A stretch of 64,000 nt of DNA, from NCBI GenBank assembly GCA_041660565.1, contig JBAZWC010000002.1, positions 217,836-281,835 on the forward strand, read 5' to 3'. Shown here piece by piece: positions 5,284-62,090 of the stretch. Numbering within the stretch: the first letter of the stretch is position 1; every line of letters begins with the position of its first letter. A program made the position numbers and the translations under genes. Source of the DNA: Patescibacteria group bacterium. GTDB lineage: Bacteria > Patescibacteriota > UBA1384 > CAJBMM01. The notes beneath the pieces are model-generated. The model saw nothing but the letters and a program-made list of their open reading frames with translations, was not told where the DNA came from and ran no database searches.

Positions 5284-5445
5284 CTGTCATTTCGACCCTG
5301 CGAGCATTGTCGAGCTGTTGGAGAAATCTTAATTAAGAATTTGAAATTTGAAGTTTGAAATTTGAAATTTTTAATTCTGGAAGGGATTCTATTCAGATTT
5401 CTCCGCCGCGGTCGTGTTGACACACTCCCCGAGTCGAAATGACAG
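5284..5445. repeat. family A element, copy 2 (contains the TTGAAAT heptamer tract 5336-5372)
   Basis: Termini are CTGTCATTTCGACCCTGCGAGCATTGTCGAGCTG at 5284 and GAGTCGAAATGACAGG at 5431-5446. The inner sequence matches copies 1 and 4. It ends 18 nt before the holA ATG. Confidence 0.6.
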
Positions 5446-6405: not shown

Positions 6406-6410
6406 GAAGA

Positions 6411-6490
6411 CGGTTAGGGGGCTTAGGGTGATTAGGGGTATTGGGGGAAACCGTTTGTTTTCCCAATCACCCAAATGTCCCTAATTCCCC
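6411..6490. repeat. TTAGGG-rich long palindrome, family C, copy 1 (probable bidirectional terminator holA/rpsT)
   Basis: GGTTAGGGGGCTTAGGGTGATTAGGGGTATTGGGGG ... CCCAATCACCCAAATGTCCCTAATTCCCC. It lies between convergent genes. Confidence 0.55.
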
Positions 6491-8225: not shown

Positions 8226-8248
8226 GGTGTTGCGGGGAAACCTAAAGC

Positions 8249-8348
8249 AAGAATTTGAAATTTGAAATTTGAAATTTTTAATGGTGGAAGGGATTCTTTC
8301 TTAGATTTCTCCACCCTCGAGACAATGCTCGAGGAGTCGAAATGACAG
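8249..8348. repeat. family A element, copy 4 (right half only)
   Basis: Heptamer tract, then GGAAGGGATTCTTTCTTAGATTTCTCCACCCTCGAGACAATGCTCGAGGAGTCGAAATGACAG. This is nearly the exact reverse complement of the left arm of copy 2. It lies upstream of the rpsO promoter. Confidence 0.55.
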
Positions 8349-8820: not shown

Positions 8821-10962
8821 ATGGACATAAAAACGATCAAGACCGAGCTCGGCGGCAAAGAGCTTTCTTTTGAGATAGGTAAATTTGCCGGATTAGCCGA
8901 TGGATCGGTAACAGTTCGATACGGTGACACGGTAGTATTAGCCACGGCAGTAATGGCGCCGGAAGCTAAAGATGGCACCGATTTCTTTCCACTCCAAGTA
9001 GAATATGAGGAACGATTGTACGCGGCCGGCAAAATTTCCGGTAGCCGCTTTATTAAACGTGAAGGTCGTCCGTCTGACCAAGCCATTTTAACCTCGCGCT
9101 TGATTGATCGCAGCGTACGCCCGATGTTTTCAAAATACGAACGTCGCGATGTTCAAGTAATTGTAACCGTGTTGTCTTTTGATAACGAAAATGACCCAGA
9201 CGTAGTCTCCATCGTTGCCGCTTCAGCCGCCTTGATGGCATCAACCGTGCCATTCCGCGGACCAATTGGTGCTGTGCGCGTTGGTTTAGTCGATGATAAA
9301 TTTATTATCAACCCAACTCGCAGCGAGCGAGAAAAAAGCTCGCTTGATTTAGTAGTTTCAGGAACATCCGAGCGAGTGGTGATGATTGAGGCCGGCGCTA
9401 ATCAAGTACCGGAAGAGACGGTAATTAAAGCAATCGCTTTTGCGCAAGAAAATCTTAAACCAACCTTAGAAATCCAGAAAAAATTAGTCGATATAATCAA
9501 TCCGGTCAATCAAACCGAAACCGGCCTAGACACCACCATGCACGATAAAGTGGCGGATTACGTTGGCGGACAGCTAGACGAAATTCTAACCATGGCCGAC
9601 AAAGAACAGCGCGAAACTAGTTTAGCTGCGTTTGAAACTCAAGTGCTGTCTAACTTTGATGGTGATTACAAACAAGTTGATCTAAAAGTGGCGTTTGCCA
9701 AAGTGGTAGAAAAGAAGCTGCGCGCTGCCATTTTAGACAAAGGTATCAGACCCGATGGCCGTCATCCTAAAGAAATTCGACCGTTATTTATCGAAGTCGG
9801 ATTGCTGCCTCGTACGCATGGTAGCGGTTTGTTTACTCGAGGCCAAACCCAAGCTCTAACCATCGCCACCCTAGGAGCGCCAGGCGAAGAGCAAATTATT
9901 GAAACGATGGACGAAGAAAGCACCAAGCGCTTTATGCATCACTACAACTTCCCACCTTTCTCAACCGGTGAAGTACGACCGGTGCGTGGTGCGTCTCGTC
10001 GCGAAATTGGCCACGGCGCCTTAGCCGAACGCGCGTTATATCCGGTTATCCCAGATCAACAAACATTCCCATACACCATTCGTTTAGTGTCCGAAGTGTT
10101 GTCTAGCAACGGCTCGTCATCGATGGCCTCAACCTGCGGCTCCACCTTAGCGTTAATGGACGCGGGCGTGCCAATTTTAGAGCCAGTTTCCGGTATTGCC
10201 ATGGGCTTGATGACAGACGAAAAAGGGAAATACTGCGTGCTATCCGACTTGCAAGGGTTGGAAGATTTCTCGGGCGATATGGATTTCAAAATCGCCGGCA
10301 CCAAAAATGGTATCACCGCAATTCAGCTAGACGTTAAAATTGCCGGGCTCACCCCCGAAATTATCCACGACACGGTGATGCAAGCCAAAGAAGGCCGAAT
10401 GTTTATTTTGGGTGAAATGCTTAAAGTGATCCCAGAAGTGCGCAAAGATTTATCACAATTTGCCCCGCGAATTACCGCTATTAAAATTGATCCGGAAAAA
10501 ATCGGCATCGTAATTGGTGGCGGCGGTAAAACGATCAACAAAATCGTCACCGAATGTGGCGGCAAAGAGATTACCAGCATCGACATTGATGATGACGGCA
10601 CCATTATGGTTTCGTCCACCGATCCCGAAATGTCTAAAAAAGCGATCAGCTGGATTGAAGGGCTAACCAAAGAAATTAAAATCGGTGAAAAATACACCGG
10701 TGAGGTAACCAATATCGTGAAAGACCGCATGCGCGGTAACGAAATTGGCGCAATTGTGCAAATTACCCCGAATCAAGATGGAATGGTGCATATTTCAGAA
10801 GTAGCACCGGAACGTATTGAAAAGGTGTCCGATGTGCTGAAAGTTGGCCAAACCGTTAACGTGGTTGTTACAGATATCGACAAAGAGCGTGGCCGCATTG
10901 GGCTCTCTATCAAACGATACGGCGAACAAAACCAGCCCGTTGAACAACGCTTCCACGAATAA
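8821..10962 (+). CDS. pnp: polynucleotide phosphorylase
   Basis: 713 aa with two RNase PH domains, then KH and S1 domains (GEVTNIVKDRMRGNEIGAIVQI). It follows rpsO. Confidence 0.95.
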   Translation: MDIKTIKTELGGKELSFEIGKFAGLADGSVTVRYGDTVVLATAVMAPEAKDGTDFFPLQVEYEERLYAAGKISGSRFIKREGRPSDQAILTSRLIDRSVRPMFSKYERRDVQVIVTVLSFDNENDPDVVSIVAASAALMASTVPFRGPIGAVRVGLVDDKFIINPTRSEREKSSLDLVVSGTSERVVMIEAGANQVPEETVIKAIAFAQENLKPTLEIQKKLVDIINPVNQTETGLDTTMHDKVADYVGGQLDEILTMADKEQRETSLAAFETQVLSNFDGDYKQVDLKVAFAKVVEKKLRAAILDKGIRPDGRHPKEIRPLFIEVGLLPRTHGSGLFTRGQTQALTIATLGAPGEEQIIETMDEESTKRFMHHYNFPPFSTGEVRPVRGASRREIGHGALAERALYPVIPDQQTFPYTIRLVSEVLSSNGSSSMASTCGSTLALMDAGVPILEPVSGIAMGLMTDEKGKYCVLSDLQGLEDFSGDMDFKIAGTKNGITAIQLDVKIAGLTPEIIHDTVMQAKEGRMFILGEMLKVIPEVRKDLSQFAPRITAIKIDPEKIGIVIGGGGKTINKIVTECGGKEITSIDIDDDGTIMVSSTDPEMSKKAISWIEGLTKEIKIGEKYTGEVTNIVKDRMRGNEIGAIVQITPNQDGMVHISEVAPERIEKVSDVLKVGQTVNVVVTDIDKERGRIGLSIKRYGEQNQPVEQRFHE

Positions 10963-10988
10963 ATAATTGAATTACGATGAGCGTCGTA

Positions 10989-11016
10989 GGGGCGGACTTG
11001 TAAGTCCGCCCTTTTG
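10989..11016 (+). terminator. rho-independent terminator of pnp (GGGGCGGAC-ttgtaa-GTCCGCCC followed by a TTTT run)
   Basis: A perfect 9-bp GC stem and T-run lie 27 nt after the pnp stop. A second hairpin (11028-11060) sits on the other side and serves the convergent minus-strand ORF. Confidence 0.6.
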
Positions 11017-11082
11017 GTATCTAAAAAAGAACCGCCCAGCGACTACAAGAGTCGGGGCGGTCGGTCGAGGTAATCCGCGCGG

Positions 11083-11421
11083 TCACTGTTCGCCGTAACC
11101 CCTGTACCACGCTTCCAGCTCGTAAGATCGGTCAGGCGCTTTTCTGCCTGTATGGGGTGTACGACGGGGCGCAAAAACGCTGGACGTCATGCCTGCCAGC
11201 AGTTCTTTAAAGGTAATCGCGTGCGCCATGTAGCCACAAGCCCGGAGTCCTTCTATCGAATTGAACTCAACGACTACGCGCACAAGCCCTTCGACTTGGG
11301 CGATTGGCGTCTCGGTGAGCTGGCATAGACCAGCGTCCCGAGCGTAGCGAAACGCCAGTATATCCGGCGATTTGCACCCTACTACGGTTTCTTGACGCAG
11401 AGGTACGCACATGGCCATCAC
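11083..11421 (-). CDS. hypothetical protein encoded in a GC-rich insert, 30 nt downstream of xerC
   Basis: 112-aa ORF in a roughly 60% GC segment (11040-11430) embedded in a roughly 45% GC context. No family is recognisable. It is co-directional with xerC. Confidence 0.3.
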   Translation of the reverse strand: MMAMCVPLRQETVVGCKSPDILAFRYARDAGLCQLTETPIAQVEGLVRVVVEFNSIEGLRACGYMAHAITFKELLAGMTSSVFAPRRTPHTGRKAPDRSYELEAWYRGYGEQ

Positions 11422-11451
11422 CCCGAAGCGAGATAGTTTTATAGTACAGTA

Positions 11452-12426
11452 TTATTCAGTTTTGTCAACAGGAGGTTCTTCTACTTTTTTATCATGAAAA
11501 GCAGTGTGGATGTCTTTTAAGTGTTGATTTGTTACGTGCGTGTAAATTTGCGTGGTATTCAACGAGGCGTGCCCCAACATCGCTTGAACATCGCGAATGT
11601 TGGCGCCATTCATCAACAAATCGGTGGCAAACGAGTGGCGCAAAGTATGCGGAGTGACAGTTTTAACAATGCCAGCCGCTTTGGCATATCCCTGCACAAT
11701 TCGTTCAATTGATCGGTCAGATAAGCGTAAGCTGCGGTCAAGTTGTTGCTCGGCCTCTGGGATCGGATCTTTTAACCGAATAAACACGGCGTTATCATCG
11801 TCGGTGCGGCTAATTAAATACTGGCGCAGATACTCGGTAGCCACCGCCGACAAAAAAACAATCCGTTCTTTGCGTCCCTTGCCAATCACCGCAAATTCGC
11901 CGCGTTCCAAATTAACCTGATCTCGATTAAGTGATGCAATTTCGGACACTCGCAATCCGGTCGAGAATAAGGTATGCAGCAATGCCAAGTCACGCGCACC
12001 TTTAATCGTTTTGGGGTTAGGCATCTGCAACAATCGCACCAATTCTTCGTGATCCAAAAACTGAATCTGGCGCGAGTCGTTCGCCGGTAAATCAATCTTC
12101 TCTGCTGCCATCGCCACCACATTTTTGCGATTTAAATAGCGCAAAAGTGATCGCAGCGCAATTAAATGATAGTTTTGAGTTGATTTTGACAGCGGTTCGT
12201 CTTTTTGATTTTTGAGACGATTCAAATACTGGCGAAATCGCAGCACCAAATCATCGGTAATTTGATCAACCGAGGTAACGTTTTGCTCTTCTGCCCAAGC
12301 GTTAAATCGGTTTAAATAATGCGAATAGCTCTCGATCGTGTGTAATGATCGATTTTTTTCAAGCTCCAAATGCTGCATAAAAGCATCAGTTGCGTCGGAT
12401 AATGTCATAAAAAAAGTATAACACAA
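11452..12426 (-). CDS. xerC: tyrosine site-specific recombinase XerC/XerD family
   Basis: N-terminal SAM-like domain and C-terminal catalytic motifs (R..HTLRHSFATDLL..GANIRDVQAMLGHASLNTTQIYTHV). Confidence 0.85.
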   Translation of the reverse strand: MCYTFFMTLSDATDAFMQHLELEKNRSLHTIESYSHYLNRFNAWAEEQNVTSVDQITDDLVLRFRQYLNRLKNQKDEPLSKSTQNYHLIALRSLLRYLNRKNVVAMAAEKIDLPANDSRQIQFLDHEELVRLLQMPNPKTIKGARDLALLHTLFSTGLRVSEIASLNRDQVNLERGEFAVIGKGRKERIVFLSAVATEYLRQYLISRTDDDNAVFIRLKDPIPEAEQQLDRSLRLSDRSIERIVQGYAKAAGIVKTVTPHTLRHSFATDLLMNGANIRDVQAMLGHASLNTTQIYTHVTNQHLKDIHTAFHDKKVEEPPVDKTE

Positions 12427-12439
12427 AGAGACGAATTTT

Positions 12440-12610
12440 AAATTTTCAATTTTTAATTAGATGCTTAGCATCGAAATCACTCGCGGTACGCTCGAGATTA
12501 TCAAATGAAAGGTAGCCAATTTTAAATGACTAAATAAGGAGCCGCCTTTTTAAAATTTAATCATTCGGTACTTATTCATTTAAAATTTAGCCTTTAAAAT
12601 TTAAAATTTT
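12440..12610. repeat. intergenic repeat, family B, copy 1 (about 170 bp)
   Basis: Near-identical to 18738-18910 and, in its 3' 125 bp, to 25185-25312. It starts with (TTTTAAT)n, has an internal imperfect inverted repeat TTTAAATGACTAAATAAGGA...CTTATTCATTTAAA, and ends TTTAGCCTTTAAAATTTAAAATT. Confidence 0.7.
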
Positions 12611-12666
12611 ATTGGCTTGTGTTATCCTAAATGTAGGAGGGCCAGAAACTGTAATTTCTGGGTGAA

Positions 12667-15600
12667 ATGCAGGTAAAATTTAATCTCCGGCAATTTGGCG
12701 TATCTTGCGCTTTACTTATGATAGTTATAAGCGCTGGTTTGATGTCGGCTAGGCCGGCTTTTGCAGGAACCAGCTTGAATGTACAAGCATCTTTAAGCGC
12801 TGATAACACTGTAACCGTAAAATTTGACCAATATGACAACGCTCAAACGTATAACATTTCTAGAGTAAGTGGCACTACCGTTGCTCCAATTAGCTCGGTT
12901 ATCGGATCTGTTGCATTTAGTGGCGGGGTCACAACTACCTCCCAAACACTATCTGGCGAGCCGGTGGGAGTGTGGGAATATCAAGTGGAAGCGTTTAGTA
13001 GCTCAACTGCCAGTGGTACGGCACTTTCCTCGCAAAAGTCATCTGCAATTACTATTTCGGCTGCGGCTGCTTCTGGCGACACAACAACCCCTGTGGATGA
13101 GAACACGGTTATACTTAATCCAACTACTATGATGGCGGATTGTGTAGCGGCCAAGAAAACTGTTGACGATGACAAGAGCAAAGCCAGTAGTTCTATCTCT
13201 AGGAGAAGTTTATACGATGCCATCAGTGATAACAGCGTTAAGGCAGTTTTCAAATGGACACTCAGCTTAGTTAATATTCTGGTACTAATCTTTCTGCTTG
13301 TGGTATCATTCTCCAGTATTTTACGTGTGCAAATAGACACCTATGCGGTCAAAAAAGTGCTGCCCGCGCTAATTATGGGCATCGTTTTGGCCAACTTTAG
13401 CTGGCTAATTTGTCGATTCTTAATCGAGGTCTCTACATTAATAACCAACTCACTGTTGGCACAGTATGGTGGCGCTGGCGAGCTGTTTAGAAAAATTGCC
13501 GAGAGCTACGGACTAAGAGACACCTTATGCACCACCGCTACCACCGGCAACTTTGCCAGCGGGCTGTTAGGCGTATTTGTTGGCACGGTTTTGGTGGTAG
13601 TAGCCGCTATCTTAATGCTAACGCTGTATATGCTACTGGTGGCACGCATCTGGATTATCACCTTGCTAATGATTTTAGCGCCGTTAGCGTTCATCTCGCT
13701 CGGCTTCCCGCTAACATCAAGCTATTTCAAAAAATGGTGGACGATGTTCTTTAACTGGGTGTTTATGACGCCGGCCGCATTCCTTATCCTCATATTAGCG
13801 GAAAGGGTGTCGATTATTGGCAAAGAAGCAAACTTAACTCGATATATTTTGACCACGGCGTTGTTGTACTTTGCCATTCAAGTGCCGTTTAAGATGGGGG
13901 GCGATTGGATGCGCCAGTGGGGTGGCTACGTCTCGCAATTCAAGAAAAAAGCGTATGAAGGAACTGCTAAAGCTGTCGATCATTCAACCAAAGGTACGCG
14001 TGAAGATTTAGCTAATCGGGCTAGGTTGATGTATCGCAATAGTGCGGTTGGGCAAGATGTCGGCCGCCGCATTGCCGGTATCCAAATGCGGCGAGACTTG
14101 CGCAAAAAAGAGCTGGATAACTTAAAAGCAAGAGATCGCGGAAATGCCCGTGATGCCGCGGTTAAGTCAAGAAAGCTGACTGCCGCTCAAGCGGCTCTAC
14201 AGGACGCCCAGCAAGTTGGTCCAAAGCGTAAAGAAATTGAAGACAATATGTTGAAGGCTTTCGGTGGAAATACAGCAAAATTAGAACAATTTAAATCTCT
14301 TACTGAAGACGAAAAGTCGCGTCGAGTAAACATGGCCCGATCTACCGATACGTCTCTGACAAAGAAGGAGCGGGACAAAGCGGCAAGAGCAGTAGCTAGT
14401 TTGAGTACAAAAATTGCCAGCTCGAGATCTAGGTTTTCTGCAGCTGAACTAGCTGACATCGACAAGCAGATGCCAGGGAATCTTGACGCACACAAAGCTG
14501 ATCAAGACAGAATAAAAGCCGCACAAGACCGTTTAGCGGCAACACAGAACAAAGTGTACGGTCGATCGTACGAAGCTGCTGAGAGCGCTCTAGAGTTAAT
14601 GAAAGGCGAGGAAGGCTCGAAAAAAACAAACCAAGCCGCCTTTGACGAAACAGAGCTTGGCAGGCAGCATATGAACTGGATGACTGAGTATGCGTTCAAG
14701 ATGGCCAAAATGGATGCCAGAACTCAGATTGCGAAAGAGCAACAATCAGGCCGATGGCTTAAGGCTTTTGGGGTTGATCCAAATAAACCCACCGCCGAAT
14801 TAATTCAATTGGCTAAGGAAATCGGGGCAGATCCAAAGGAGCTTGGCAAGGCAATCAGCGACAACTTTACACTGCGATCAGATGCAGCGGCGCTTAAAGA
14901 TCGCAACGCAAAAACAGACGAAGATAATTTGGTTAAGGTGGCTCGAGAACAACTGACTCTGCATAATACTGTGTATAAGGTTAGAAATTTACGCGATCAA
15001 ATGACTCAAACGCAAGGTTCGCTAGACGCTGCAATTATTTCTGGTGATAAAATTCAAGAGAAGCTTTTGACTGAGATGCTTAAAGTATTAAAATCACAAC
15101 ATGACGCTGCCGTTGTAGATCACGACTCGACAATTGATAAATTACGTACCGACAGTAACAACAATTTTTCTGCGCTTGCACCGCATCTTCAGCAGGTAAT
15201 GACTGAGGGCGCTGGTGGGACAATCGCAGGCGCTAAAGAACTTGATAGTGGTACTGTGTTGAGATTGGTTGGTCGTGTAAAGGCGTGGGAAACGGGTAAA
15301 GCCGCAAATAGATTAGATGATACTGGAATATTGGCTCTGTCGCAAAAGTTACAAGCCGGTAGCCCCGAGGATGAAATTACGCAGAAGCAGGTTGAGGCGT
15401 ATCGTGCAGGAAATTTTGCCGCCATAGATGATGATATTTCTAAGCGCGCGGATATAGTTTCAAAAATAAATATTTGGACAGCGGCTGTAAGTAAGACCCT
15501 GGGCGGAACTACAAATCCTGATAGCGATATGGTTTCTGAGATGAGCCTTAACCAACTCATAACACCGGAGACAAGGCACTCAGTGGCGCTTCAAATAGCA

Positions 15601-15786
15601 CGTTCTGCAAAAGGCAGAGGATTCTTTAAAGATAATGGAATTGATGTGGAAACTGCATCACCTGATTGGTATACTACCCCAGCTGCAATGAATGTTATGA
15701 ACAAGGCACTGACCAATAATAAGAGTCGTAGATTAGTAATTGGTGCGCTTAAACAAGTATTTACCACCCAAGGGAAAGGTAACTAA
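12667..15786 (+). CDS. giant membrane protein with a signal peptide, a Ser/Thr-rich exodomain, a VirB6/TrbL-like polytopic core and a roughly 580-aa charged coiled-coil tail
   Basis: The signal peptide is MQVKFNLRQFGVSCALLMIVISAGLMSARPAFAG. At least six TM helices fall between about aa 200 and 450 (ILAPLAFISLGFP...). A long K/R/E/D/Q-rich heptad-like C-terminus follows. The gene is first in an operon with the next two ORFs (3-nt and 12-nt gaps). Confidence 0.4.
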   Translation: MQVKFNLRQFGVSCALLMIVISAGLMSARPAFAGTSLNVQASLSADNTVTVKFDQYDNAQTYNISRVSGTTVAPISSVIGSVAFSGGVTTTSQTLSGEPVGVWEYQVEAFSSSTASGTALSSQKSSAITISAAAASGDTTTPVDENTVILNPTTMMADCVAAKKTVDDDKSKASSSISRRSLYDAISDNSVKAVFKWTLSLVNILVLIFLLVVSFSSILRVQIDTYAVKKVLPALIMGIVLANFSWLICRFLIEVSTLITNSLLAQYGGAGELFRKIAESYGLRDTLCTTATTGNFASGLLGVFVGTVLVVVAAILMLTLYMLLVARIWIITLLMILAPLAFISLGFPLTSSYFKKWWTMFFNWVFMTPAAFLILILAERVSIIGKEANLTRYILTTALLYFAIQVPFKMGGDWMRQWGGYVSQFKKKAYEGTAKAVDHSTKGTREDLANRARLMYRNSAVGQDVGRRIAGIQMRRDLRKKELDNLKARDRGNARDAAVKSRKLTAAQAALQDAQQVGPKRKEIEDNMLKAFGGNTAKLEQFKSLTEDEKSRRVNMARSTDTSLTKKERDKAARAVASLSTKIASSRSRFSAAELADIDKQMPGNLDAHKADQDRIKAAQDRLAATQNKVYGRSYEAAESALELMKGEEGSKKTNQAAFDETELGRQHMNWMTEYAFKMAKMDARTQIAKEQQSGRWLKAFGVDPNKPTAELIQLAKEIGADPKELGKAISDNFTLRSDAAALKDRNAKTDEDNLVKVAREQLTLHNTVYKVRNLRDQMTQTQGSLDAAIISGDKIQEKLLTEMLKVLKSQHDAAVVDHDSTIDKLRTDSNNNFSALAPHLQQVMTEGAGGTIAGAKELDSGTVLRLVGRVKAWETGKAANRLDDTGILALSQKLQAGSPEDEITQKQVEAYRAGNFAAIDDDISKRADIVSKINIWTAAVSKTLGGTTNPDSDMVSEMSLNQLITPETRHSVALQIARSAKGRGFFKDNGIDVETASPDWYTTPAAMNVMNKALTNNKSRRLVIGALKQVFTTQGKGN

Positions 15787-15788
15787 TC

Positions 15789-16634
15789 ATGGCTGATGAA
15801 AATACCACCACAACTCAAAATCTTGATCCGGATGATTATCTACTGGAGCTAGAAACAGATCCGGAAAGCGACTGCTATAAGCTTATTCAAGATCAAAAAT
15901 ACGATCAAATAATGCCGGTGCTGGCACCGCTACCGTTAAAAGTGCAAATTAGGGTTTGCGAGCTGTTGCGCGAAACGTTTATCGATCAAATGCGCCACCT
16001 GATCAACTCTACTCCAGCCGATATCTACCAAAAAATTACCGCTACTATTACTAAGACGAGTGGTGATGATCAGGCAAAACTGGCTCAAATTCGCGACCAC
16101 TATTTTGTGACAATTAGTATGTTGATGACCTTAAAAGCGCCGAGCACACAAAAACGTTTGGTCAAAATTGCCGCTCAAAAATATAACGCAGACACCTCTT
16201 ATCGTCAGATTGACATCGAACAACAGTTGGCCGAAACCATGTTGCGCGCGTTGCCAAATATTGCCGAGACAGAAACAGATTACATTCAAAAAATCGCCGA
16301 ATTTACCGGGGTCGAAATGAGCGATCAGCCGTTTACCGATTTTGTTTCTAAAGCGGTTGATGCGCTTTATTACATCGCTTTGCTAGACGATTTATTGTTG
16401 CTGAAAATTGGAACGCAGACCGGTGATGATAAGATCGACTTGACGGTGTTGCAATCACAGGGAGTGATTGAGTTCGTACGTATGGTGATGATGTTGCGTG
16501 ATCCGTTTTTGCAGGCGTTGTATAGCGAATCTGAGCTGAATACATCAGTTGCTGCGATGCCCGAAATTTCACCCGAGACGGTGAAGCAGACTCCAGCGCC
16601 CGAAACTGAAACAACTAATTATGATATCGTGTAA
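15789..16634 (+). CDS. acidic cytoplasmic hypothetical protein (operon partner of the VirB6-like and PrgI-like genes)
   Basis: The start lies 3 nt after the upstream stop. There are no TM segments and no recognisable domain. Confidence 0.45.
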   Translation: MADENTTTTQNLDPDDYLLELETDPESDCYKLIQDQKYDQIMPVLAPLPLKVQIRVCELLRETFIDQMRHLINSTPADIYQKITATITKTSGDDQAKLAQIRDHYFVTISMLMTLKAPSTQKRLVKIAAQKYNADTSYRQIDIEQQLAETMLRALPNIAETETDYIQKIAEFTGVEMSDQPFTDFVSKAVDALYYIALLDDLLLLKIGTQTGDDKIDLTVLQSQGVIEFVRMVMMLRDPFLQALYSESELNTSVAAMPEISPETVKQTPAPETETTNYDIV

Positions 16635-16645
16635 TTAGAGGAAAT

Positions 16646-17131
16646 ATGCAATACAAAGTGCCGCAAAATATCGATAAAGAGGACGAAATCGTTGGCCCGC
16701 TAACGCTGGTTCAATTTAGCTATTTGGCCATCGCCTTTGCCATTGACTTTTTGGCATTCAAATCTTTGCCATTGGCACTAAGTTTGATCATCATTCTGCC
16801 TCTTTCGGTATTGGCTTTTGCTTTGGCATTTTTGAAGATTCAAGATCGGCCGATGCTGACATTTTTGATGGCGGTGCTGCATTTTTCTCGTGATGATAAA
16901 GCCAGAGTGTGGAGTAAAACATCTGACCGCCCCATTTTGCAGATCGACAAAACGGTAGCGCCGGTGGTAGCTACCGATGCTACACAGCACAAACAGTTCG
17001 ATTCTGCTAAAGCCGAAGCACTGGCCAATGTCATTGACGCACGCGGTCAAGCCCCAGCACCTGCCACGCCCGAGCCGACTAAGATGCCGTTTACAAATGT
17101 AGATCAAAACATCTTGAAAAAGAACGATTAG
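16646..17131 (+). CDS. PrgI-family (VirB3-like) small membrane protein
   Basis: 161 aa. The N-terminus MQYKVPQNIDKEDEIVGPLTLVQFSYLAIAFAIDFLAF, followed by two TM helices, is typical of PrgI-family proteins from Gram-positive/CPR T4SS loci. Confidence 0.5.
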   Translation: MQYKVPQNIDKEDEIVGPLTLVQFSYLAIAFAIDFLAFKSLPLALSLIIILPLSVLAFALAFLKIQDRPMLTFLMAVLHFSRDDKARVWSKTSDRPILQIDKTVAPVVATDATQHKQFDSAKAEALANVIDARGQAPAPATPEPTKMPFTNVDQNILKKND

Positions 17132-17244
17132 GGTCATTGGGGTAGTTAGGGCAGTTGAATCCCCCTAACCGTACCTACCGCCTGACAGTCTCTCAAACAA
17201 TCTTGGCAAAGGGTTTGGCGTTTGTTACGCTACCAAAGTAAAGG

Positions 17245-17823
17245 ATGTGGGCAAGCGTGTTTTCGACTATCGACAGCCAGATTGTGCTGGCATTAAATCA
17301 TTTAGCCCTCACAAACGACTTGACCAAATTCGTCGTCGTTTTTTGTTCGAACGGTTTAATTGCGATTGTGGTCTCGGTGGCTATTATGTATTTTTTATTT
17401 AATTTTCCGCTTTCAGCCGGTCAGCGAGTCCGCCCGATTATCGGATACGCCGCAGTCAGCATTTTGCTGGCGATGGCGGCGGGCTACATCATCGAGACAT
17501 TTATTGGTCGCGCCCGCCCATTTGCGTTGCTAAGTGATATTTCGGTTATTGGATCAATCCCCAAAAACACCTCTATGCCCAGTTTGCATACGTTGGCTGC
17601 ATTTGCCTTTGCCGGTGCGTTTATTTTTTGGCGACCAAAGGTAAATCATGCATGGTGGTTAATTGCCGCCGCCACTTTGGTGGGATTATCGCGTATTGCG
17701 GCCGGTTTGCATTACCCAACCGACGTGTTAGTTGGAGCGGCCATTGGCATCACCTGCGCTTATCTGGTAGTATACGAAGGATCCCCGGTGTTTAGATGGC
17801 TTTCTAGAGGACAGCAAAGATAA
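17245..17823 (+). CDS. PAP2-family phosphatase (PgpB-like, membrane)
   Basis: Polytopic membrane protein with PAP2 motifs (SMPSLHT...SRIAAGLHYPTDVLVGAAIG). Confidence 0.7.
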   Translation: MWASVFSTIDSQIVLALNHLALTNDLTKFVVVFCSNGLIAIVVSVAIMYFLFNFPLSAGQRVRPIIGYAAVSILLAMAAGYIIETFIGRARPFALLSDISVIGSIPKNTSMPSLHTLAAFAFAGAFIFWRPKVNHAWWLIAAATLVGLSRIAAGLHYPTDVLVGAAIGITCAYLVVYEGSPVFRWLSRGQQR

Positions 17824-17932
17824 TTTGAAATTCGAAATTTGAAATTTTTAAACATTTGGGAATTTTTTATTTTAAATTCGGATCTTGTTCATTTCAAATT
17901 GTAAATTTTATATTTCAAATTCTGGAGGTACC

Positions 17933-18724
17933 GTGTCTTATTTACAAGCAATCGTTTTAGGATTAGTACAAGGATTAGGTGAGTTTTTGCCTATTTCCAG
18001 CTCGGCTCACCTGGTATTGGTCCCGTATATTTTTGGCTGGACCGCACACACGGATATTTTTGATGTAGCTTTGCACTTGGGCACGCTTTTAGCGGTGGTG
18101 ATCTTTTTTGCCAAAGACATTTGGCGTTTGCTTAAAGCCGGTTTAACTCAGGGCATCAAAACTGTTGATGGCAAGCTATTCTGGCTGATTATGGTGGCTA
18201 CCGTGCCAGCCGGATTGATTGGCTATCAATTTGAAGGCTTTGTTGACGATAAGTTGCGTACCGCTTACTTGGCCATTGCACTGGCGATGGCAATTATGGG
18301 TGTTGTACTATGGCTTGTCGATAAATATGCATCCAAAAAACTGGATGAAAATAAACTAACGTGGGGACAATCAATTTTAATTGGTGTTTCGCAGGCGCTT
18401 GCGTTGTTACCAGGTGTGTCTCGATCTGGTGCCACTATGACCACCGGTTTATTGTTTGGTCTAACCCGAGAATCGGCTGCCCGTTTTTCATTTTTGATGT
18501 CGGTGCCCATTATTGCCGGCGCCGGATTACTTAAATTAACTAAATTGCATGCATCAGACGTTGATGGGCAATTTATCGTTGGAGTGGTTGTGGCGGCAGT
18601 AGTTGGCTATCTAAGCATTCGCTGGTTATTAAATTATTTGAACAAAGGTCGTTTTGATATTTTTGCTTGGTATCGGTTTGGCTTTGCCGCACTTGTGATC
18701 ATCCTTCTTGTCGTCAGACGGTAA
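17933..18724 (+). CDS. uppP: undecaprenyl-diphosphate phosphatase
   Basis: The BacA/UppP N-terminus is LQAIVLGLVQGLGEFLPISSSAHL. A GTG start at 17933 has SD GGAGG 6 nt upstream. The ORF-track start at 17885 is over-extended. Confidence 0.9.
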   Translation: MSYLQAIVLGLVQGLGEFLPISSSAHLVLVPYIFGWTAHTDIFDVALHLGTLLAVVIFFAKDIWRLLKAGLTQGIKTVDGKLFWLIMVATVPAGLIGYQFEGFVDDKLRTAYLAIALAMAIMGVVLWLVDKYASKKLDENKLTWGQSILIGVSQALALLPGVSRSGATMTTGLLFGLTRESAARFSFLMSVPIIAGAGLLKLTKLHASDVDGQFIVGVVVAAVVGYLSIRWLLNYLNKGRFDIFAWYRFGFAALVIILLVVRR

Positions 18725-18737
18725 CCAAGGGTATAAT

Positions 18738-18910
18738 TTCAAATTTTTAATTTTTAATTAGATGTTTAGCATCGAAATCACTCGCGGAACGCTCGAGATT
18801 ATCAAATGAAAAGTTGCCAATTTCTAAATGACTAAATAAAGAACCATTTAAAATTTAATCATTCGGTACTTATTCATTTAAAATTTAGCCTTTAAAATTT
18901 AAAATTCAAA
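18738..18910. repeat. family B, copy 2
   Basis: More than 90% identical to copy 1 by eye. It lies between uppP and dedA. Confidence 0.7.
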
Positions 18911-23271: not shown

Positions 23272-23439
23272 CTGTCATCTCGACCCTGTGAGCGTTGTCG
23301 AACTGTTGGCTTCCTGCCCTCTTAGGGCGTAAGCCCGGAGGGAGAGATCCCGCCAGTAGCTAGATCAATACGGGATTTCTCCATCAAGCGGGCGGACATA
23401 TGAGTCCGCCCCTACACCAAGAGATTGTCGAAATGACAA
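23272..23439. repeat. family A element, copy 3 (GC-rich interior)
   Basis: Termini are CCTGTCATCTCGACCCTGTGAGCGTTGTCGAACTG and GTCGAAATGACAA. The interior retains GGAGAGATCCC...GGGATTTCTCC and carries a GGGCGGAC-atatga-GTCCGCCC hairpin. Confidence 0.55.
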
Positions 23440-28892: not shown

Positions 28893-28985
28893 AGGTTTCT
28901 TTCGTTCGGGGGATTAGGGACATTAGGGAAGTTGGGGATTTTGGGAGTGCCTTTGGCTCCCCCAATGCCCCTAATCACCCCAATC
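28893..28985. repeat. family C, copy 3 (between divergent dnaE and the methyltransferase gene)
   Basis: GGGGGATTAGGGACATTAGGGAAGTTGGGGATTTTGGGAG...CTCCCCCAATGCCCCTAATCACCCCAATCTCCCTAAT. Confidence 0.55.
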
Positions 28986-29013
28986 TCCCTAATTTGTGTT
29001 ATAATTATTCATA

Positions 29014-34967: not shown

Positions 34968-35100
34968 TTCCTAGATTATACCACAGATTTGTTAATAATC
35001 CGTAGGGGCGGACCTATGTGTCCGCCCGCATAGTATTGTTTATTGTAGAGTTTTGTGGTATAACAACACTGCAAGCACTCTACGTTTCAGGAGACAGTCC

Positions 35101-35784: not shown

Positions 35785-35804
35785 GCGTGTGGGCGCCGGC
35801 ACAA

Positions 35805-35839
35805 AACGGCTCGGATGCAGTGCATTCCGAGCCGTTTTT
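35805..35839 (+). terminator. rho-independent terminator of paralog A (identical copy at 36618-36653 after paralog B)
   Basis: AACGGCTCGGATGCAGTGCATTCCGAGCCGTT followed by TTTT. A 32-45 bp identical segment is duplicated after both paralogs. Confidence 0.65.
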
Positions 35840-35958
35840 CATTTAGTTACGTGAAATTTCTTCATTATCATATTCGATTTAGGTGTTACGTATTGAATAT
35901 TATTTATTTTTATGGTATAAAATAGTTTGCATGCACACTACGCTTCGGGAGGCTGTCC

Positions 35959-36594: not shown

Positions 36595-36732
36595 GGCGTC
36601 ACGTGGACGCCGACACAAAACGGCTCGGATGCAGTGCATTCCGAGCCGTTATTCATTTTATAGTCGAATTGGCTTGCCATTCCGAAGCCTTCTTGACCTT
36701 CCGTAGCTTTGGCGAAGGAGGTGGCGAAGGAT

Positions 36733-36915: not shown

Positions 36916-38484
36916 TCACTTCTTGACGAGGGCGGCCACGATTTTATCCGCGGCCACCAGCGTCTCCAACTTGGATGTGGCCTCAGATATCAGAGACTCC
37001 GTTGCCGCCAGCTCGTCGCGTTGTCGCTGTGCCAACGCGGTTCGATCGTCTATGACCCGGGTCAAGCGGTTGATTGCCTGCTGGAGCTTGTCGGGTGCGG
37101 GTGTGGCGGGCGTGTTCTGCGGGTGTGGCGTGGGTGGCACTGGTGACGCGCCGTTATGCCCCGCCTGGTTAAGACGGTCCATGGCCAGAGCGATCAAGTC
37201 GTACTCGTGGCCAGGTTTCAGCGTCAGATCGTCCTCGAGGGTAGCCGCCCCGCCTTTGAGGTTTGTCATTACCTTGATGGGCGTCGCGAATACCAGGGGT
37301 TGATTGAGACCGGGTCTAGCGAAGGCGTGCTTGCTCCGTAGTAAGCAGTTGGTTGCTGATGTTACTTCACGGCTCGACGCGCCGATCTGTTTGCCGATTC
37401 GAACGGAGCGCACTTTACCGCCGTTCTCAAAGATCTCCTTGATCAGGTGGTATGCTACTTTGATCTGGACAGGCCCGGTTAGAATCACCGGATCCCCGGT
37501 TAACTCAGGCATCGAATATCGTGCCGGTGCGGTGTCTGCCATTGCGTTGTCTCCTGGGAGTGCGCTGGGTTGGTCTTGGGGTGGTGATGGTGCAACTTCG
37601 TCGTCTGGAGTCAGCGTTTGATCGAGCGGAGTCTGGCAGGTACCGTGCGCCCCGTTTCGGTGTTGAGAGTGGGTGATGAAAGGCTGGGTCATGTCTGTGC
37701 CATCCGTTGCACACGCCATGTCTTGTAACCACCCGTTGTTAAGCAAGCGCTTTCTTGCTTGCCGTTCCAGTTGGTACACCCTCGACTCTGACCGGCGCAA
37801 GACTTCACCGATCTCTTTGTATGTCATCCCGCCGAAGTAGTAGCAGAGAGCTACCTTTCTTTCATTACTCGGTAGGGTATTTACAGCTTGCAGGATGACG
37901 CGACGTGCTTCATTATCCTCGGCTTCCGCTGCTACATCAACCTGCTTGTCTCGAACCATATCTGCGATGGTAATGGTTTCCTCGGTGTCAACCGGTTTGT
38001 CGATCCTGACAAGGGAAGTGCGTTCTTTCTCTGCGCACAAGCCAAGGTAGGATTTGATGTCTAGCTTCAACTCACGCGCAACCTCGTCATCTGTCGGAGG
38101 CCGACCCATCATTGATTCCAAACGGGCTATAACAGCTTCGATCACCTTGATGTTCTCACGTACGGTACGGGGAACCCAGTCTTCTTCGCGCAGTCCTTCC
38201 AGGATCGCTCCTCGAATTAGCGCGATGGCGTAGGTTTCGAACTTAACCATTCGGGTCAGATCAAATTGGTCCACTGCCTTGATTAGACCAATTGCGCCAT
38301 AACCCGCTATGTCGCCTATCTCCATCGTTGGTGGCAGACACGGTATCATTCTACCAGCCGATACTTTGGCTAGGTAAGAGTAGTGGGTGATCAACGCGGC
38401 TCGAGCCCGTGGATCACCCCATTGCTTGAACCGGCGCCAGTTTTCACTGATGCTTTCGGGGCGATCCTGAATTGCCGTGGCCAC
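36916..38484 (-). CDS. FliA/WhiG-type (sigma-28 family) RNA polymerase sigma factor with a Pro-rich C-terminal extension of about 270 aa
   Basis: Region 2 (GDIAGYGAIGLIKAVDQFDLTRMVKFETYAIALIRGAILEGLREEDWVPRTVR), region 3, and region 4 (LPSNERKVALCYYFGGMTYKEIGEVLRRSESRVYQLERQARKRL). The extension has PPQDQP/PPTPHP linkers and a C-terminal coiled coil. The GTG start has SD GGAGG 5 nt upstream. The segment is about 62% GC. Confidence 0.65.
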   Translation of the reverse strand: MATAIQDRPESISENWRRFKQWGDPRARAALITHYSYLAKVSAGRMIPCLPPTMEIGDIAGYGAIGLIKAVDQFDLTRMVKFETYAIALIRGAILEGLREEDWVPRTVRENIKVIEAVIARLESMMGRPPTDDEVARELKLDIKSYLGLCAEKERTSLVRIDKPVDTEETITIADMVRDKQVDVAAEAEDNEARRVILQAVNTLPSNERKVALCYYFGGMTYKEIGEVLRRSESRVYQLERQARKRLLNNGWLQDMACATDGTDMTQPFITHSQHRNGAHGTCQTPLDQTLTPDDEVAPSPPQDQPSALPGDNAMADTAPARYSMPELTGDPVILTGPVQIKVAYHLIKEIFENGGKVRSVRIGKQIGASSREVTSATNCLLRSKHAFARPGLNQPLVFATPIKVMTNLKGGAATLEDDLTLKPGHEYDLIALAMDRLNQAGHNGASPVPPTPHPQNTPATPAPDKLQQAINRLTRVIDDRTALAQRQRDELAATESLISEATSKLETLVAADKIVAALVKK

Positions 38485-47375: not shown

Positions 47376-47470
47376 ACCAAAAACGGTTAGGGAGATTAGG
47401 GACTTTAGGGATTTTGGGAGACCATCGGTTATCCCAACCGCCCTAATCACCCTAAAACCCCTAACCGTCT
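47376..47470. repeat. family C, copy 4 (between convergent clpC-like and response regulator genes)
   Basis: CGGTTAGGGAGATTAGGGACTTTAGGGATTTTGGGAG ... TCCCAACCGCCCTAATCACCCTAAAACCCCTAACCG. Confidence 0.55.
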
Positions 47471-47483
47471 TTAGAATTTTGGC

Positions 47484-51959: not shown

Positions 51960-54071
51960 ATGTTACAGATTTTATTATTAACCATCGTTTCAGCGGTCAA
52001 CATATACCTTGCCTTTTTGGTTTGTCTAAAAGGTAAAGATAAAGTAATAAACTACTATTTTGGTGTGCTAGTAACTTTTATGGTGCTGTGGATGGTGACA
52101 AACTATCTATGTGACAATCCGATTATGCCGGCATGGGCTCTGTTTTGGAATAGATTGACCTTTGCTGTGGCCAGTGGATTAATTATGTCTTTCTTCCTTT
52201 TCTCTTGGAACTTTCCTCGAAATATCTTTGATTTTGGCCGTCATGTTACTACGATTGGGGTCATCTTGACTTTGGTTGTGGCCACGTTGTCGGTTTCAAC
52301 CAACACTATTATCAAATCGGTTGATTATTACAGCTGGGGAACAAACGCCGTTCCGGGTACGCTATATCCTTTATTTTTAATCCTTTTTGCGGTCTTTGTC
52401 GGCTTGGGTTTTTATAGTCAAATTGTAAAATTCATCCGATCTCGCGGTAAATCACGGTCTCAGCTAGCCTTTTTGTTTTTAGGATTACTACTCTCGGCGG
52501 TTGGTGTTAGTGTGTTTGGCATAATTATCCCAATCATCACCGGTTTGACGAACTATGGTAAGACTGGAGTGTACTCGCTGGTTATCTTCACCGCTCTAAC
52601 TTCGTACGCTATCATTGAGCATCATCTTTTCGATATTAGGTTTATTATCAAGCGCACCATTGTTTACTCGGTGCTGCTATCGTTTGTGTTAATGACCTAC
52701 GCGTTAGTTGTATTCTTTTCATCTCAAATAATCGGTGGAGACCTGTCGTTTGGTATCAAATCGTTCGCGCCAAACATTATCGCAGCGTTGTTAATAGCCG
52801 TTGGATTTGATCCGCTGAAACAATGGTTGTCCAAAGTAACTGACAAATATCTGTTCAAAGGTGAATACGATACACAAGAAGTGGCAAAAAAACTGGCCAA
52901 GCAGCTCTCAAATGTGGTCAGCTTAGATGAGGCATTGGACACTACAATGTCAATTGTGGCTGACGAAATGCGCATCAGTAGAGTGGCAACGATCATATTA
53001 CGTCGTATCGAAAAAGATACGGTGGTAAAGCGAGTTAAATCAACTGGTTATAGCAATGTGGTTAAATTGGAAGATAAGCCAATTGGATTTCTGGTTGACT
53101 ATTTGACTAAACATCCGGTAATGGTGGTTGTTGAAGACTTACGCGATGATCTTAGCAAGACCGCTATCAATCGCACTGTCATCAATGGAGTGATCTCGCA
53201 AATTGATCAATTTCAGGCGGTGGTGGCGCTGCCAATTCAGGTTAGTGGGGCGGTTATTGGTATTATGCTGGTTGGCGAAAAGTTGTCCGGTGACAGCTTT
53301 GATGAAGAAGACTTTGACACTTTAGAGCTGGTGGCGAATCAAACCGCGTTGTCAATTGAGAAAGCTCAATTTTATGAGGAAGATAAGTTAAAATCTGAAT
53401 TTATTTCTATCGCTTCTCATGAACTGCTCACCCCAACCGCAGCGATTGAAGGATATTTGTCGATGTTGCTGGACGAAAAGGCGGTGCCAACCAAAGAGCA
53501 GGCACATTTATATGCCACGCAGGCGTATCAAAGTAGTCGTCGTTTGGCCGATTTAGTCAAAGATTTGCTTTCTATCTCTCGAATTGAGAGTGGTAGATTA
53601 AAGATTACGGCAGTACCGATGGATTTGGTGCCAAGCATTGAACAAGCAACATCGGAATTAGCTAATATCGCCAAGGAAAAAGGATTGAAGCTAACCTTTG
53701 TTAAGCCGGGTGCTGGTTTGCCAAAGGTAGTCGCAGATCCCGATCGGGTGTTACAGATCTGCGTGAATTTAATTAGTAACGCCATTAAATATTCAATGAA
53801 GGGTGAAATAAAAGTATCGGCTGTGCCTAAAAAAGATCATGTTTTAGTATCTGTGCAAGATAATGGCATTGGTATTTCAAAGACAGATCAACAGCATTTG
53901 TTTGAGAAATTTCATCGCATTGATAATGCTAAAACAAGCGGGATTATGGGAACAGGCTTGGGGTTGTACATCACCAAAAATTTGGTAACATTGCTTGGTG
54001 GTGAGATGAAAGTGGTAAGCGAACCGGACAAAGGTAGCGTGTTTAGCTTTACTCTACCAATGTCAAAATGA
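51960..54071 (+). CDS. membrane sensor histidine kinase (7TM receptor-like N-terminus + GAF + HisKA + HATPase_c)
   Basis: Seven N-terminal TM helices, a GAF-like region, H-box IASHELLTPTAAIEGY, NLISNAIKYS and GTGLGLYITK. Confidence 0.8.
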   Translation: MLQILLLTIVSAVNIYLAFLVCLKGKDKVINYYFGVLVTFMVLWMVTNYLCDNPIMPAWALFWNRLTFAVASGLIMSFFLFSWNFPRNIFDFGRHVTTIGVILTLVVATLSVSTNTIIKSVDYYSWGTNAVPGTLYPLFLILFAVFVGLGFYSQIVKFIRSRGKSRSQLAFLFLGLLLSAVGVSVFGIIIPIITGLTNYGKTGVYSLVIFTALTSYAIIEHHLFDIRFIIKRTIVYSVLLSFVLMTYALVVFFSSQIIGGDLSFGIKSFAPNIIAALLIAVGFDPLKQWLSKVTDKYLFKGEYDTQEVAKKLAKQLSNVVSLDEALDTTMSIVADEMRISRVATIILRRIEKDTVVKRVKSTGYSNVVKLEDKPIGFLVDYLTKHPVMVVVEDLRDDLSKTAINRTVINGVISQIDQFQAVVALPIQVSGAVIGIMLVGEKLSGDSFDEEDFDTLELVANQTALSIEKAQFYEEDKLKSEFISIASHELLTPTAAIEGYLSMLLDEKAVPTKEQAHLYATQAYQSSRRLADLVKDLLSISRIESGRLKITAVPMDLVPSIEQATSELANIAKEKGLKLTFVKPGAGLPKVVADPDRVLQICVNLISNAIKYSMKGEIKVSAVPKKDHVLVSVQDNGIGISKTDQQHLFEKFHRIDNAKTSGIMGTGLGLYITKNLVTLLGGEMKVVSEPDKGSVFSFTLPMSK

Positions 54072-54127: not shown

Positions 54128-54520
54128 ATGTCTGAATTAAACGGTAAAACAGTGTTAGTGGTGGACGATGACGAGTCGTTGCGTCAGATGTACCGTTTGC
54201 GTCTAGAAGCGTCCGGATACGCCGTTGTAGAGGCAACCAATGGGGAAGAAGCGATGGCTAGAGCAGTAGATACCCAGCCAAGCTGTATTTTACTAGACAT
54301 TATGATGCCAAGAGTAAACGGCTTTGACGTGTTAGACATTCTTAAGACAACCGCATCAACTAAAAAAATTCCGGTGGTGGTATTGACTGCTTTAATGCAA
54401 GACGACGCTCGTAAGCGCGTACAAAACGCCGGTGCGGCGGCTTGTCTGGTTAAATCCGAAGTAGTACCGGCGCAAGTGGTAGCTACGATTGACGCCGTGT
54501 TAGCCAAACCAACAACATAA
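54128..54520 (+). CDS. single-domain response regulator (CheY-like)
   Basis: VLVVDDDES...ILLDIMMPRVNGFDVLDILK...K. Confidence 0.85.
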   Translation: MSELNGKTVLVVDDDESLRQMYRLRLEASGYAVVEATNGEEAMARAVDTQPSCILLDIMMPRVNGFDVLDILKTTASTKKIPVVVLTALMQDDARKRVQNAGAAACLVKSEVVPAQVVATIDAVLAKPTT

Positions 54521-56411: not shown

Positions 56412-56420
56412 TTTCTCACC

Positions 56421-57446: not shown

Positions 57447-57497
57447 AAATAGTATAACAATAGAAATTACAAATCACAATTTTTAATTTTTAACCTT

Positions 57498-58877: not shown

Positions 58878-58902
58878 GATTCCAAATTTGTCTGATAAGT
58901 TT

Positions 58903-60821: not shown

Positions 60822-60868
60822 TTCCCAATTGGTCAAATTGGTCCAATTGGATAAATTGGATTTTGTAT

Positions 60869-62089: not shown

Positions 62090-62090
62090 C

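Follow-up and report, generated by a model that had tools for sequence, protein, structure and literature searches.

An operon for VirB6-like and PrgI-family proteins in a Patescibacteria group bacterium: the probable membrane part of a type IV secretion system separated from its VirB4 ATPase

Introduction

The locus considered here lies at positions 12667-17131 of a 64,000-nucleotide stretch (the window) of contig JBAZWC010000002.1 from a Patescibacteria group bacterium, and carries a three-gene operon whose products resemble membrane parts of a type IV secretion system (T4SS). Is this a minimal secretion system without a VirB4 ATPase, as a first-pass annotation proposed, or one piece of a larger system? 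T4SS genes in Saccharibacteria and the candidate phyla radiation were reported by McLean et al. 2020, and VirB3, VirB6, TrsD and VirB4 were found to be essential in Candidatus Southlakia epibionticum (Wang et al. 2023, PMC10633639).

Our analysis favours the second answer. We consider it likely that the operon is the cytoplasmic-membrane translocon part of a chromosomal, Patescibacteria-type T4SS related to the MPF-FATA class, separated from VirB4 by translocation. It is a real and unremarkable example of the known Patescibacterial T4SS, though a rearranged one, and does not define a new kind of system. The outcomes that the first-pass annotation had named as fatal to a T4SS reading did not materialise: similarity to VirB6 and PrgI is present, the genome encodes a VirB4, and the operon was not encountered in free-living relatives lacking a T4SS. 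Its assignment of the organism to Saccharibacteria is unproven: the NCBI label is Patescibacteria group bacterium only, and the nearest named loci carry the labels Berkelbacteria (68%) and Saccharibacteria (63%).

The operon and its PrgI-family protein

The operon consists of the following genes.

12667-15786, plus strand: VirB6-like gene, 1039 aa (MFA6082494.1, WC773_03735)
15789-16634, plus strand: acidic accessory gene, 281 aa (MFA6082495)
16646-17131, plus strand: PrgI-family (VirB3-like) gene, 161 aa (MFA6082496)

All three open reading frames (ORFs) are intact and co-directional, and GC content around them is flat (0.43-0.45). Their coordinates confirm the description of three tightly coupled genes with a divergent tyrosine recombinase upstream; the spacers measure 2 nt and 11 nt, instead of the 3 nt and 12 nt first given.

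The clearest family assignment is that of the 161-aa protein, which matches Pfam PF12666 (PrgI) with 36.1 bits against a gathering cutoff of 27, over profile positions 1-90 of 91. It has two N-terminal transmembrane (TM) helices (residues ~15-33 and 45-63) and shares 45-56% identity with the PrgI proteins of relatives' T4SS clusters, so that its designation as PrgI/VirB3-like stands. A sequence search of the PDB with this protein returned noise only. In characterised systems, it is the VirB3-like protein that holds the VirB4 ATPase at the membrane. The VirB3 homologue of the MPF-FATA class is PrgI (PMC12102498).

A degenerate tandem motif of the TTAGGG type (TTAGGGnnATTAGGG…) lies directly after the PrgI stop codon (17128-17161). 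The same kind of short intergenic motif occurs at 6407-6490, 28905-28992 and 47387-47471, and is found in both orientations.

The VirB6-like protein

The 1039-aa protein is divided as follows.

12667-12765, plus strand: signal peptide or N-terminal anchor, residues 1-33, judged from hydropathy and a predicted local distance difference test (pLDDT) score below 50; the cleavage site, predicted from sequence, falls between ...SARPAFA and GT
12781-13056, plus strand: extracytoplasmic beta-sandwich resembling fibronectin type III (FN3) or immunoglobulin-like (Ig-like) domains, residues 39-130, inside the Ser/Thr-rich N-terminal region; many FN3 matches for the AlphaFold2 model
13234-13911, plus strand: VirB6-fold hydrophobic core, residues 190-415, the best-conserved part of the protein, pLDDT 80-93
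13912-15783, plus strand: basic all-helical C-terminal extension, residues 416-1039, 624 aa, isoelectric point (pI) 9.4

This confirms the signal peptide, Ser/Thr-rich exodomain (27% Ser/Thr in residues 1-200) and membrane core of the first-pass annotation. The core contains six hydrophobic segments between residues ~197 and 412, where at least five hydrophobic helices were taken to mark a polytopic core. The long charged tail is likewise upheld as basic and helical, with a measured extent of 624 aa in place of about 580 aa. Its first ~100 residues (401-500) carry a net charge of +12, and the helices at residues ~750-1030 make up a domain predicted with higher confidence (pLDDT 75-89) within an AlphaFold2 monomer model of mean pLDDT 67.7.

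Against Pfam TrbL (PF04610), the protein scores 16.1 bits (E 0.0097, residues 234-377; cutoff 25.9). TrbL is matched at E<0.01 by 12 of the 21 proteins in the family (best 1.9e-7), and a precomputed PF19590 (TrbL_3) match exists for an identical 1022-aa product. The search that yielded its 20 homologues gave 21 hits, all of them Patescibacterial or metagenomic. Over the core, identity to nine homologues is 59-69%, with R327, P339, W357 and P369 invariant. The exodomain and tail evolve fast while the core is conserved, and the tail can be aligned with the closest relatives only, namely P0002 and L009 (36% over 882 aa).

The structural comparison points the same way. In a Foldseek search of the PDB with the AlphaFold2 model, TrwI/VirB6 chains of R388 came first: ~250 of their 260-270 residues were covered, at a TM-target of 0.45-0.49 and E-values of 9e-3 to 6e-2. 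Some 220-260 core residues align structurally to TrwI and DotA, and similarity to the fold of experimentally solved VirB6 is present. The T4SS membrane module proposed at first, pairing a PrgI/VirB3-like protein with a VirB6-like one whose C-terminus is greatly extended, is thus upheld by the PrgI profile, the TrbL-family matches and the fold search.

VirB4 lies on the same contig

No VirB4 or TraC/TrsD-like homologue was found within the 64-kb window by tblastn or by Pfam annotation of all large ORFs. The window's large ORFs are otherwise assigned, and include PolA, HolA, PNPase, DnaE, ClpB, GltX, histidine kinases and a type IV pilus cluster. A search with a relative's VirB4 did recover the gene on the same 374,447-bp contig as the operon, just beyond the left edge of the window. 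This VirB4 (P0032, MFA6082477.1) is 597 aa long, matches PF19044, PF01935 and PF12846, and is 85% identical to the VirB4 of relative locus L001. A TraC/TrsD-like partner of 229 aa (P0151, MFA6082478.1; PF26593, TraC-like) overlaps the virB4 start. In a separate assembly, virB4 is carried by Logan contig L004, which has no overlap with the window.

The order of accessions fixes the distance between the two loci. VirB4 (MFA6082477) and TraC (MFA6082478) are followed by proteins of 470, 179 and 195 aa (MFA6082479-81) and valyl-tRNA synthetase (ValRS, MFA6082482), then by PolA (MFA6082487), PNPase (MFA6082492), the VirB6-like protein (MFA6082494), the 281-aa protein (MFA6082495) and PrgI (MFA6082496). 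VirB4 is therefore encoded on the strand opposite to the VirB6-like gene, 17 coding sequences (CDS) upstream of it and at least 20 kb away. A published survey used ±20 CDS of virB4 as its operational limit (PMC12102498); by NCBI accession order the VirB6-like gene (+17) and the PrgI gene (+19) both fall inside it, and the PrgI gene is not adjacent to VirB4 or its TrsD-like partner in this genome. In that survey, 880 of 1649 VirB3 and 304 of 480 VirB6 homologues of Patescibacteria lay within 20 CDS of virB4 (Quinonero-Coronel et al. 2025, PMC12102498). The absence of VirB4 from the locus thus holds for the window and fails for the contig. The idea of a minimal, VirB4-less system falls with it, since VirB4 and its TraC/TrsD-like partner share the contig and the module counts as near virB4.

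The ancestral arrangement

Comparison with relatives shows where the block came from. A search with a 10-sequence core alignment gave three relative loci from genomes and three from metagenomes, and the synteny counts rest on seven informative relatives (L001/L010, L007, L008, L009, L011, L013 and L014). In all seven, VirB6-like…PrgI–TraC-like–VirB4 is contiguous, with the VirB6-like gene 4-9 kb upstream of VirB4 and the PrgI orthologue immediately upstream of TraC-like–VirB4. The gene orders are given below, with unnamed proteins denoted by their length.

L001/L010: TrmB–Mur–FemAB / TsaD–ValRS–195–195–513–(ParE toxin–antitoxin)–VirB6(1442)–317–331–60–PrgI–96–TraC–43–VirB4–hydrolase–PEGA protein
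L013, L014: as L001; PolA adjoins TrmB in L014
L007, L008, L009, L011: VirB6-like … PrgI–TraC–VirB4
L004 (the VirB4 locus of this genome): TsaD–ValRS–195–179–470–TraC–VirB4; VirB6…PrgI block absent

L004 is collinear with L001, L013 and L014, in which VirB6, accessory genes a and b, and PrgI sit between the ~500-aa gene and TraC. The window itself starts with Mur ligase–TrmB–PolA, as in L014. The ancestral cluster stood in a PolA–TrmB–Mur–TsaD–ValRS neighbourhood, and the present genome carries a derived translocation. As the genes are contiguous in all seven informative relatives and L004 lacks the block, the block has been translocated by ~20 kb to lie beyond PolA…PNPase–Xer in inverted orientation. 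This genome has also lost accessory gene b, the second of the two (227-331 aa in relatives).

The 195-aa (weak TPR matches), 179-aa and 470-aa genes that precede TraC-like–VirB4 (L004 3916-6713, outside the window on the same contig) are positionally conserved in L001, L013 and L014 and are candidates for extra T4SS components or pilins. These three proteins gave no pilin Pfam match.

A dispersed repeat bounds the moved segment

As first noted, a repeat stands next to the operon: a copy of ~180 nt separates the recombinase from the first gene. It belongs to a family resembling miniature inverted-repeat transposable elements (MITEs).

12434-12608, no strand assigned: MITE-like repeat copy 1, between the recombinase and the VirB6-like gene; left boundary of the relocated segment
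18735-18906: MITE-like repeat copy 2, right side of the segment
25185-25314: MITE-like repeat copy 3, without an internal 42 nt
L004 9348-9374: a further copy of the MITE-like repeat, directly after the virB4 stop codon

The repeat is ~175-185 nt long with 25-nt A/T-rich terminal inverted repeats, its copies are 92-94% identical, and its RNA fold has a z-score of -3.1. Copy 1 contains weak -35/-10-like hexamers at 12579-12607, and an Rfam search of the intergenic region 10940-12680 found nothing. Copies 1 and 2 (92% identical) bracket exactly a 6.3-kb segment of the VirB6-like, 281-aa, PrgI, PAP2 and UppP genes, which suggests a repeat-associated rearrangement.

The same repeats raise the question of whether the segment is placed correctly. 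In Logan SRR18595301, a short-read assembly made independently, contigs end exactly at the repeat: on both sides of the segment (L003), on the Xer side (L005) and right after virB4 (L004 9348-9374). The copy behind the virB4 stop codon permits an alternative path. The segment might then be mis-joined in the contig and lie physically elsewhere, on one path directly downstream of virB4 in convergent orientation. We regard such an artefact as unlikely: the copies differ at ~8% of positions and are resolvable with a larger k or read pairs, and proteins of this 374,447-bp contig are on record at both NCBI and JGI. L004 also shows independently that the block is missing from its canonical place. Because nothing of the block stands between the 470-aa gene and TraC in L004, it is absent from there under either assembly path, leaving the cluster non-canonical; its function would be unchanged.

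Weighing the secretion-system assignment

Several points tell against reading the operon as part of a VirB6-type translocon. The TrbL score of the 1039-aa protein alone is under the Pfam threshold (16.1 against 25.9 bits), the Foldseek E-values of its model stop short of 1e-3, and a PDB sequence search with a VirB6-family profile matched no solved VirB6, giving noise only. Six hydrophobic segments after an N-terminus-out start would, by a simple count, place the tail outside the cell. No VirB2-like pilin, type IV coupling protein (T4CP) or VirB8 analogue was identified among the ORFs of the window and L004. Finally, the place given to the segment depends on ~180-nt repeats of 92% identity having been assembled correctly.

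We keep the VirB6 assignment despite the protein's own sub-threshold score because 12 of the 21 family members match TrbL at E<0.01 and its AlphaFold2 model shows VirB6 fold similarity in Foldseek. For the tail, charge bias and the positive-inside rule suggest that it is probably cytoplasmic, and the VirB6 of Agrobacterium, with five TM helices, is a precedent favouring an inside tail. Most VirB6 helices of R388 lie outside the bilayer (PMC12857230), so helix counting is unreliable for the topology of the tail.

The separation from VirB4 also leaves room for an orphaned or functionally independent module, its genes either decaying or since recruited to some membrane function that does not need VirB4. 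Three observations would fit: the physical uncoupling of the module from virB4, the loss of the second accessory gene and the high divergence of the 281-aa protein. This reading nonetheless seems quite improbable to us in view of three intact and tightly spaced ORFs, a VirB6 core 59-69% identical to relatives with its invariant residues kept, a PrgI 45-56% identical to cluster-borne orthologues, and an intact VirB4 and TraC-like pair only 17 CDS away. Scattered T4SS genes are, moreover, functional in Rickettsia (cited in PMC12102498).

The neighbouring recombinase

One further gene needs to be considered.

11452-12426, minus strand: XerC/XerD-like tyrosine recombinase, Phage_integrase 148.6 bits; apparently a chromosomal neighbour only

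The recombinase scores 236 bits against both XerC and XerD, under the equivalog cutoffs of each, and follows S15–PNPase in uniform GC. It looks like a chromosomal Xer that is an incidental neighbour of the operon. The earlier suggestion that it is linked to the module is not supported: it is XerC/XerD-like, stands among housekeeping genes and shows no hallmarks of an integrative conjugative element (ICE).

That the operon is cargo of an ICE or integrative mobilisable element (IME) inserted by this recombinase can be all but dismissed: a divergent tyrosine recombinase does lie directly upstream and direct repeats do flank the 6.3-kb segment on both sides, but the enzyme is Xer-like in housekeeping surroundings (S15, PNPase), GC is flat at 0.43-0.45, no relaxase, T4CP or tRNA lies nearby, the repeat flanking the segment belongs to a multi-copy MITE-like family and is no att site, the segment also holds the housekeeping genes PAP2 and UppP, and relatives carry these T4SS genes in synteny on the chromosome. 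On these grounds an integrative conjugative or mobilisable element was rejected. In the window and in L004, the ORFs annotated with Pfam include no relaxase or coupling protein.

Between PNPase and the recombinase lies an orphan ORF of 112 aa (11083-11421, minus strand, GC ~55%) that has no Pfam match; Rfam likewise gave nothing in this intergenic block.

The acidic 281-aa protein

The middle gene encodes an all-helical, soluble protein of pI 4.36 without a TM segment. A word-indexed search of 5.8e9 proteins found only the protein itself, phmmer against 1.84 billion representatives gave two weak matches, and nothing rose above noise in Pfam or NCBIfam. Its AlphaFold2 model is poor (pLDDT 49.9), and for this reason the best Foldseek E-value of 0.78 is uninformative.

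Position was a better guide than similarity. A profile built from three positional equivalents (L001_317, L007_291 and L009_280) had the 281-aa ORF as its sole match among the 276 ORFs of the window (E 1.3e-9); the same family profile gave noise only against PDB sequences. The equivalents in relatives are as follows.

L001 14337-15290: acidic-family equivalent
L007 4961-5836: acidic-family equivalent
L009 2951-3793: acidic-family equivalent
L012 5405-6247: acidic-family equivalent
L013 14263-15177: acidic-family equivalent
L014 14633-15646: acidic-family equivalent

Members are ~280-340 aa long with a pI of 4.2-4.5 and an invariant C-terminal (L/Y)D(I/V)x, at an overall identity of only ~20-27%. 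Judged by these sequences, the family is fast-evolving and lineage-specific, and always stands immediately 3' of the VirB6-like gene. The conserved acidic family with its C-terminal motif and the repeat-bounded translocation are the minor new points of this work.

The 281-aa protein may be a partner of the basic VirB6 tail, and the (L/Y)D(I/V)x terminus could be a docking or recognition peptide. A bolder and rather unlikely suggestion is that the acidic family provides a dedicated cytoplasmic adaptor, perhaps even a substrate, for docking on the long basic VirB6 tail; the pair could then stand in for the missing T4CP in substrate recruitment by Patescibacterial T4SSs.

Comparison with known systems

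One of the closest counterparts is the T4SS of Candidatus Southlakia epibionticum ML1 (SEML1_0006-0019) and the Patescibacteria clade, with which the present system shares VirB4, a TraC/TrsD-like protein, PrgI/VirB3 and a VirB6-like protein of ~1000 aa. Both are chromosomal, of monoderm type and without a relaxase nearby, and the VirB6…PrgI–TrsD–VirB4 order is found in relatives. Most Patescibacterial T4SS clusters lack a relaxase (PMC10633639, PMC12102498). ML1 has the corresponding run SEML1_0008 (VirB4), 0009, 0010 (PrgI), 0011 (998 aa) and 0013 (more than 1085 aa, with a TrbL/VirB6 structural match) (PMC10633639); among the rows used from its transposon-insertion sequencing (Tn-seq) table, 0008-0011 are scored as essential (ES) and 0012 is not. 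Unlike in ML1, the VirB6–PrgI block here is inverted and 15-16 housekeeping genes away from TrsD–VirB4. There is a single VirB6-like gene, in contrast to two in ML1, L008 and L011, and PrgI is 161 aa long instead of 300 aa. An acidic gene separates VirB6 from PrgI here; in ML1, the NTF2-like SEML1_0012 stands between the two VirB6-like genes. Identity of the VirB6-like protein to those of the Saccharibacteria-labelled L008 and L011 is only ~29-30%.

In its VirB6-like then VirB3-like order, monoderm setting and PrgI Pfam family, the operon also resembles PrgH–PrgI–PrgJ (VirB6–VirB3–VirB4, MPF-FATA) of Enterococcus pCF10. pCF10 differs in being a plasmid that also encodes a relaxase and a coupling protein, and in having VirB4 immediately downstream. 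The VirB6 proteins of MPF-FATA systems are ~300 aa long without large extensions (PMC12857230). The structural matches, R388 TrwI/VirB6 (PDB 7O3V, 8RT9, 8RTD) and DotA of Legionella Dot/Icm (PDB 9NGY), are only 8-17% identical in sequence; they belong to diderm systems that have an outer-membrane core and include VirB5/IcmX as a partner, and neither has an FN3-like N-domain or a basic helical tail.

The first-pass annotation had likened the tail to the extended VirB6 proteins of obligate symbionts. This holds for architecture and gene scattering: the Rickettsiales rvh system likewise combines a VirB6 core with a large C-proximal hydrophilic domain and spreads its T4SS genes over more than one chromosomal locus (PMC12857230, PMC12102498). 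It does not hold for sequence, as no similarity was found between the extensions. Rickettsiales also differ in their diderm envelope and in having four to five VirB6 paralogues in tandem. Convergence probably accounts for the resemblance. Nor is a long tail an unusual trait, given that all homologues are 650-1611 aa long and the T4SS VirB6-like proteins of S. epibionticum have 998 aa and more than 1085 aa; extended VirB6 is a recognised architecture class (PMC12857230).

Taken with these comparisons, the translocated T4SS module may work as follows. The 1039-aa protein would be exported N-terminus-out via its Sec signal and display an exodomain that is variable, FN3-like and rich in Ser/Thr. 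Solved systems have a pentameric VirB6; the VirB6-fold core here may build the base of a channel or stalk, the long basic helical tail probably being cytoplasmic, and the 161-aa PrgI/VirB3-like protein would serve as a two-TM adaptor. The distal VirB4 and its TraC/TrsD-like partner would be supplied in trans as the energising part and assemble with these products. The proposed history is that the VirB6–accessory–PrgI block moved next to Xer and PAP2/UppP, with loss of the second accessory gene. The analogy with S. epibionticum makes interaction with a host bacterium, and not conjugation, the most likely function of the machine.

Other features of the window

A type IV pilus cluster occupies 55252-63764 on the minus strand, with PilB (T2SSE, 62091-63764), PilC (T2SSF, 60869-62089), a 454-aa CarboxypepD_reg/SpaA-like protein, unknown proteins of 190 and 459 aa, PilM, PilN and PilO. 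The type IV pilus is the other envelope machine reported essential in Saccharibacteria, and here it lies within 40 kb of T4SS genes.

A sigma-70-family protein of 522 aa (36916-38484, minus strand) has regions 2, 3 and 4 in its first 250 aa and a C-terminal extension of ~270 aa. Its gene is in the most GC-rich stretch of the window (0.57 over 36-38 kb) and adjoins tRNA-Gln and a duplicated 56-nt hairpin (35789-35844, 36603-36658). A 47-nt direct repeat of 89% identity (54287-54333 and 54724-54770, spaced 437 nt) lies in coding sequence downstream of a 7TM-GAF histidine kinase (51960-54071) and suggests tandem paralogous response-regulator receiver domains.

Two further motif families recur. 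A GC-rich hairpin (GGGGCGGAC…GTCCGCCC) stands at gene ends (10986-11016, 23385-23415, 35001-35036; L004 1-60) and probably represents intrinsic terminators or elements like repetitive extragenic palindromes (REPs). A periodic A/T-rich motif (AATTTGAAATTTGAAATT and variants) occurs upstream of many genes (5320-5390, 8234-8297, 17804-17935, 18735-18759) and may be a promoter-associated or curved-DNA element.

Implications

Modules in metagenome-assembled genomes that seem to lack VirB4 can be simple rearrangements, and it is advisable to look beyond a window or ±20 CDS before calling a system minimal. In these genomes, MITE-like repeats of ~180 nt bound the moved block and fragment short-read assemblies. 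Few machines have been demonstrated to be indispensable when cultured Patescibacteria grow as epibionts, and the T4SS is one of them. Within the T4SS, the acidic partner gene and the basic VirB6 extension offer a candidate route of cargo recruitment in systems poor in coupling proteins; if true, docking of an acidic adaptor would account for the 600-1100-aa cytoplasmic extensions of these VirB6 proteins.

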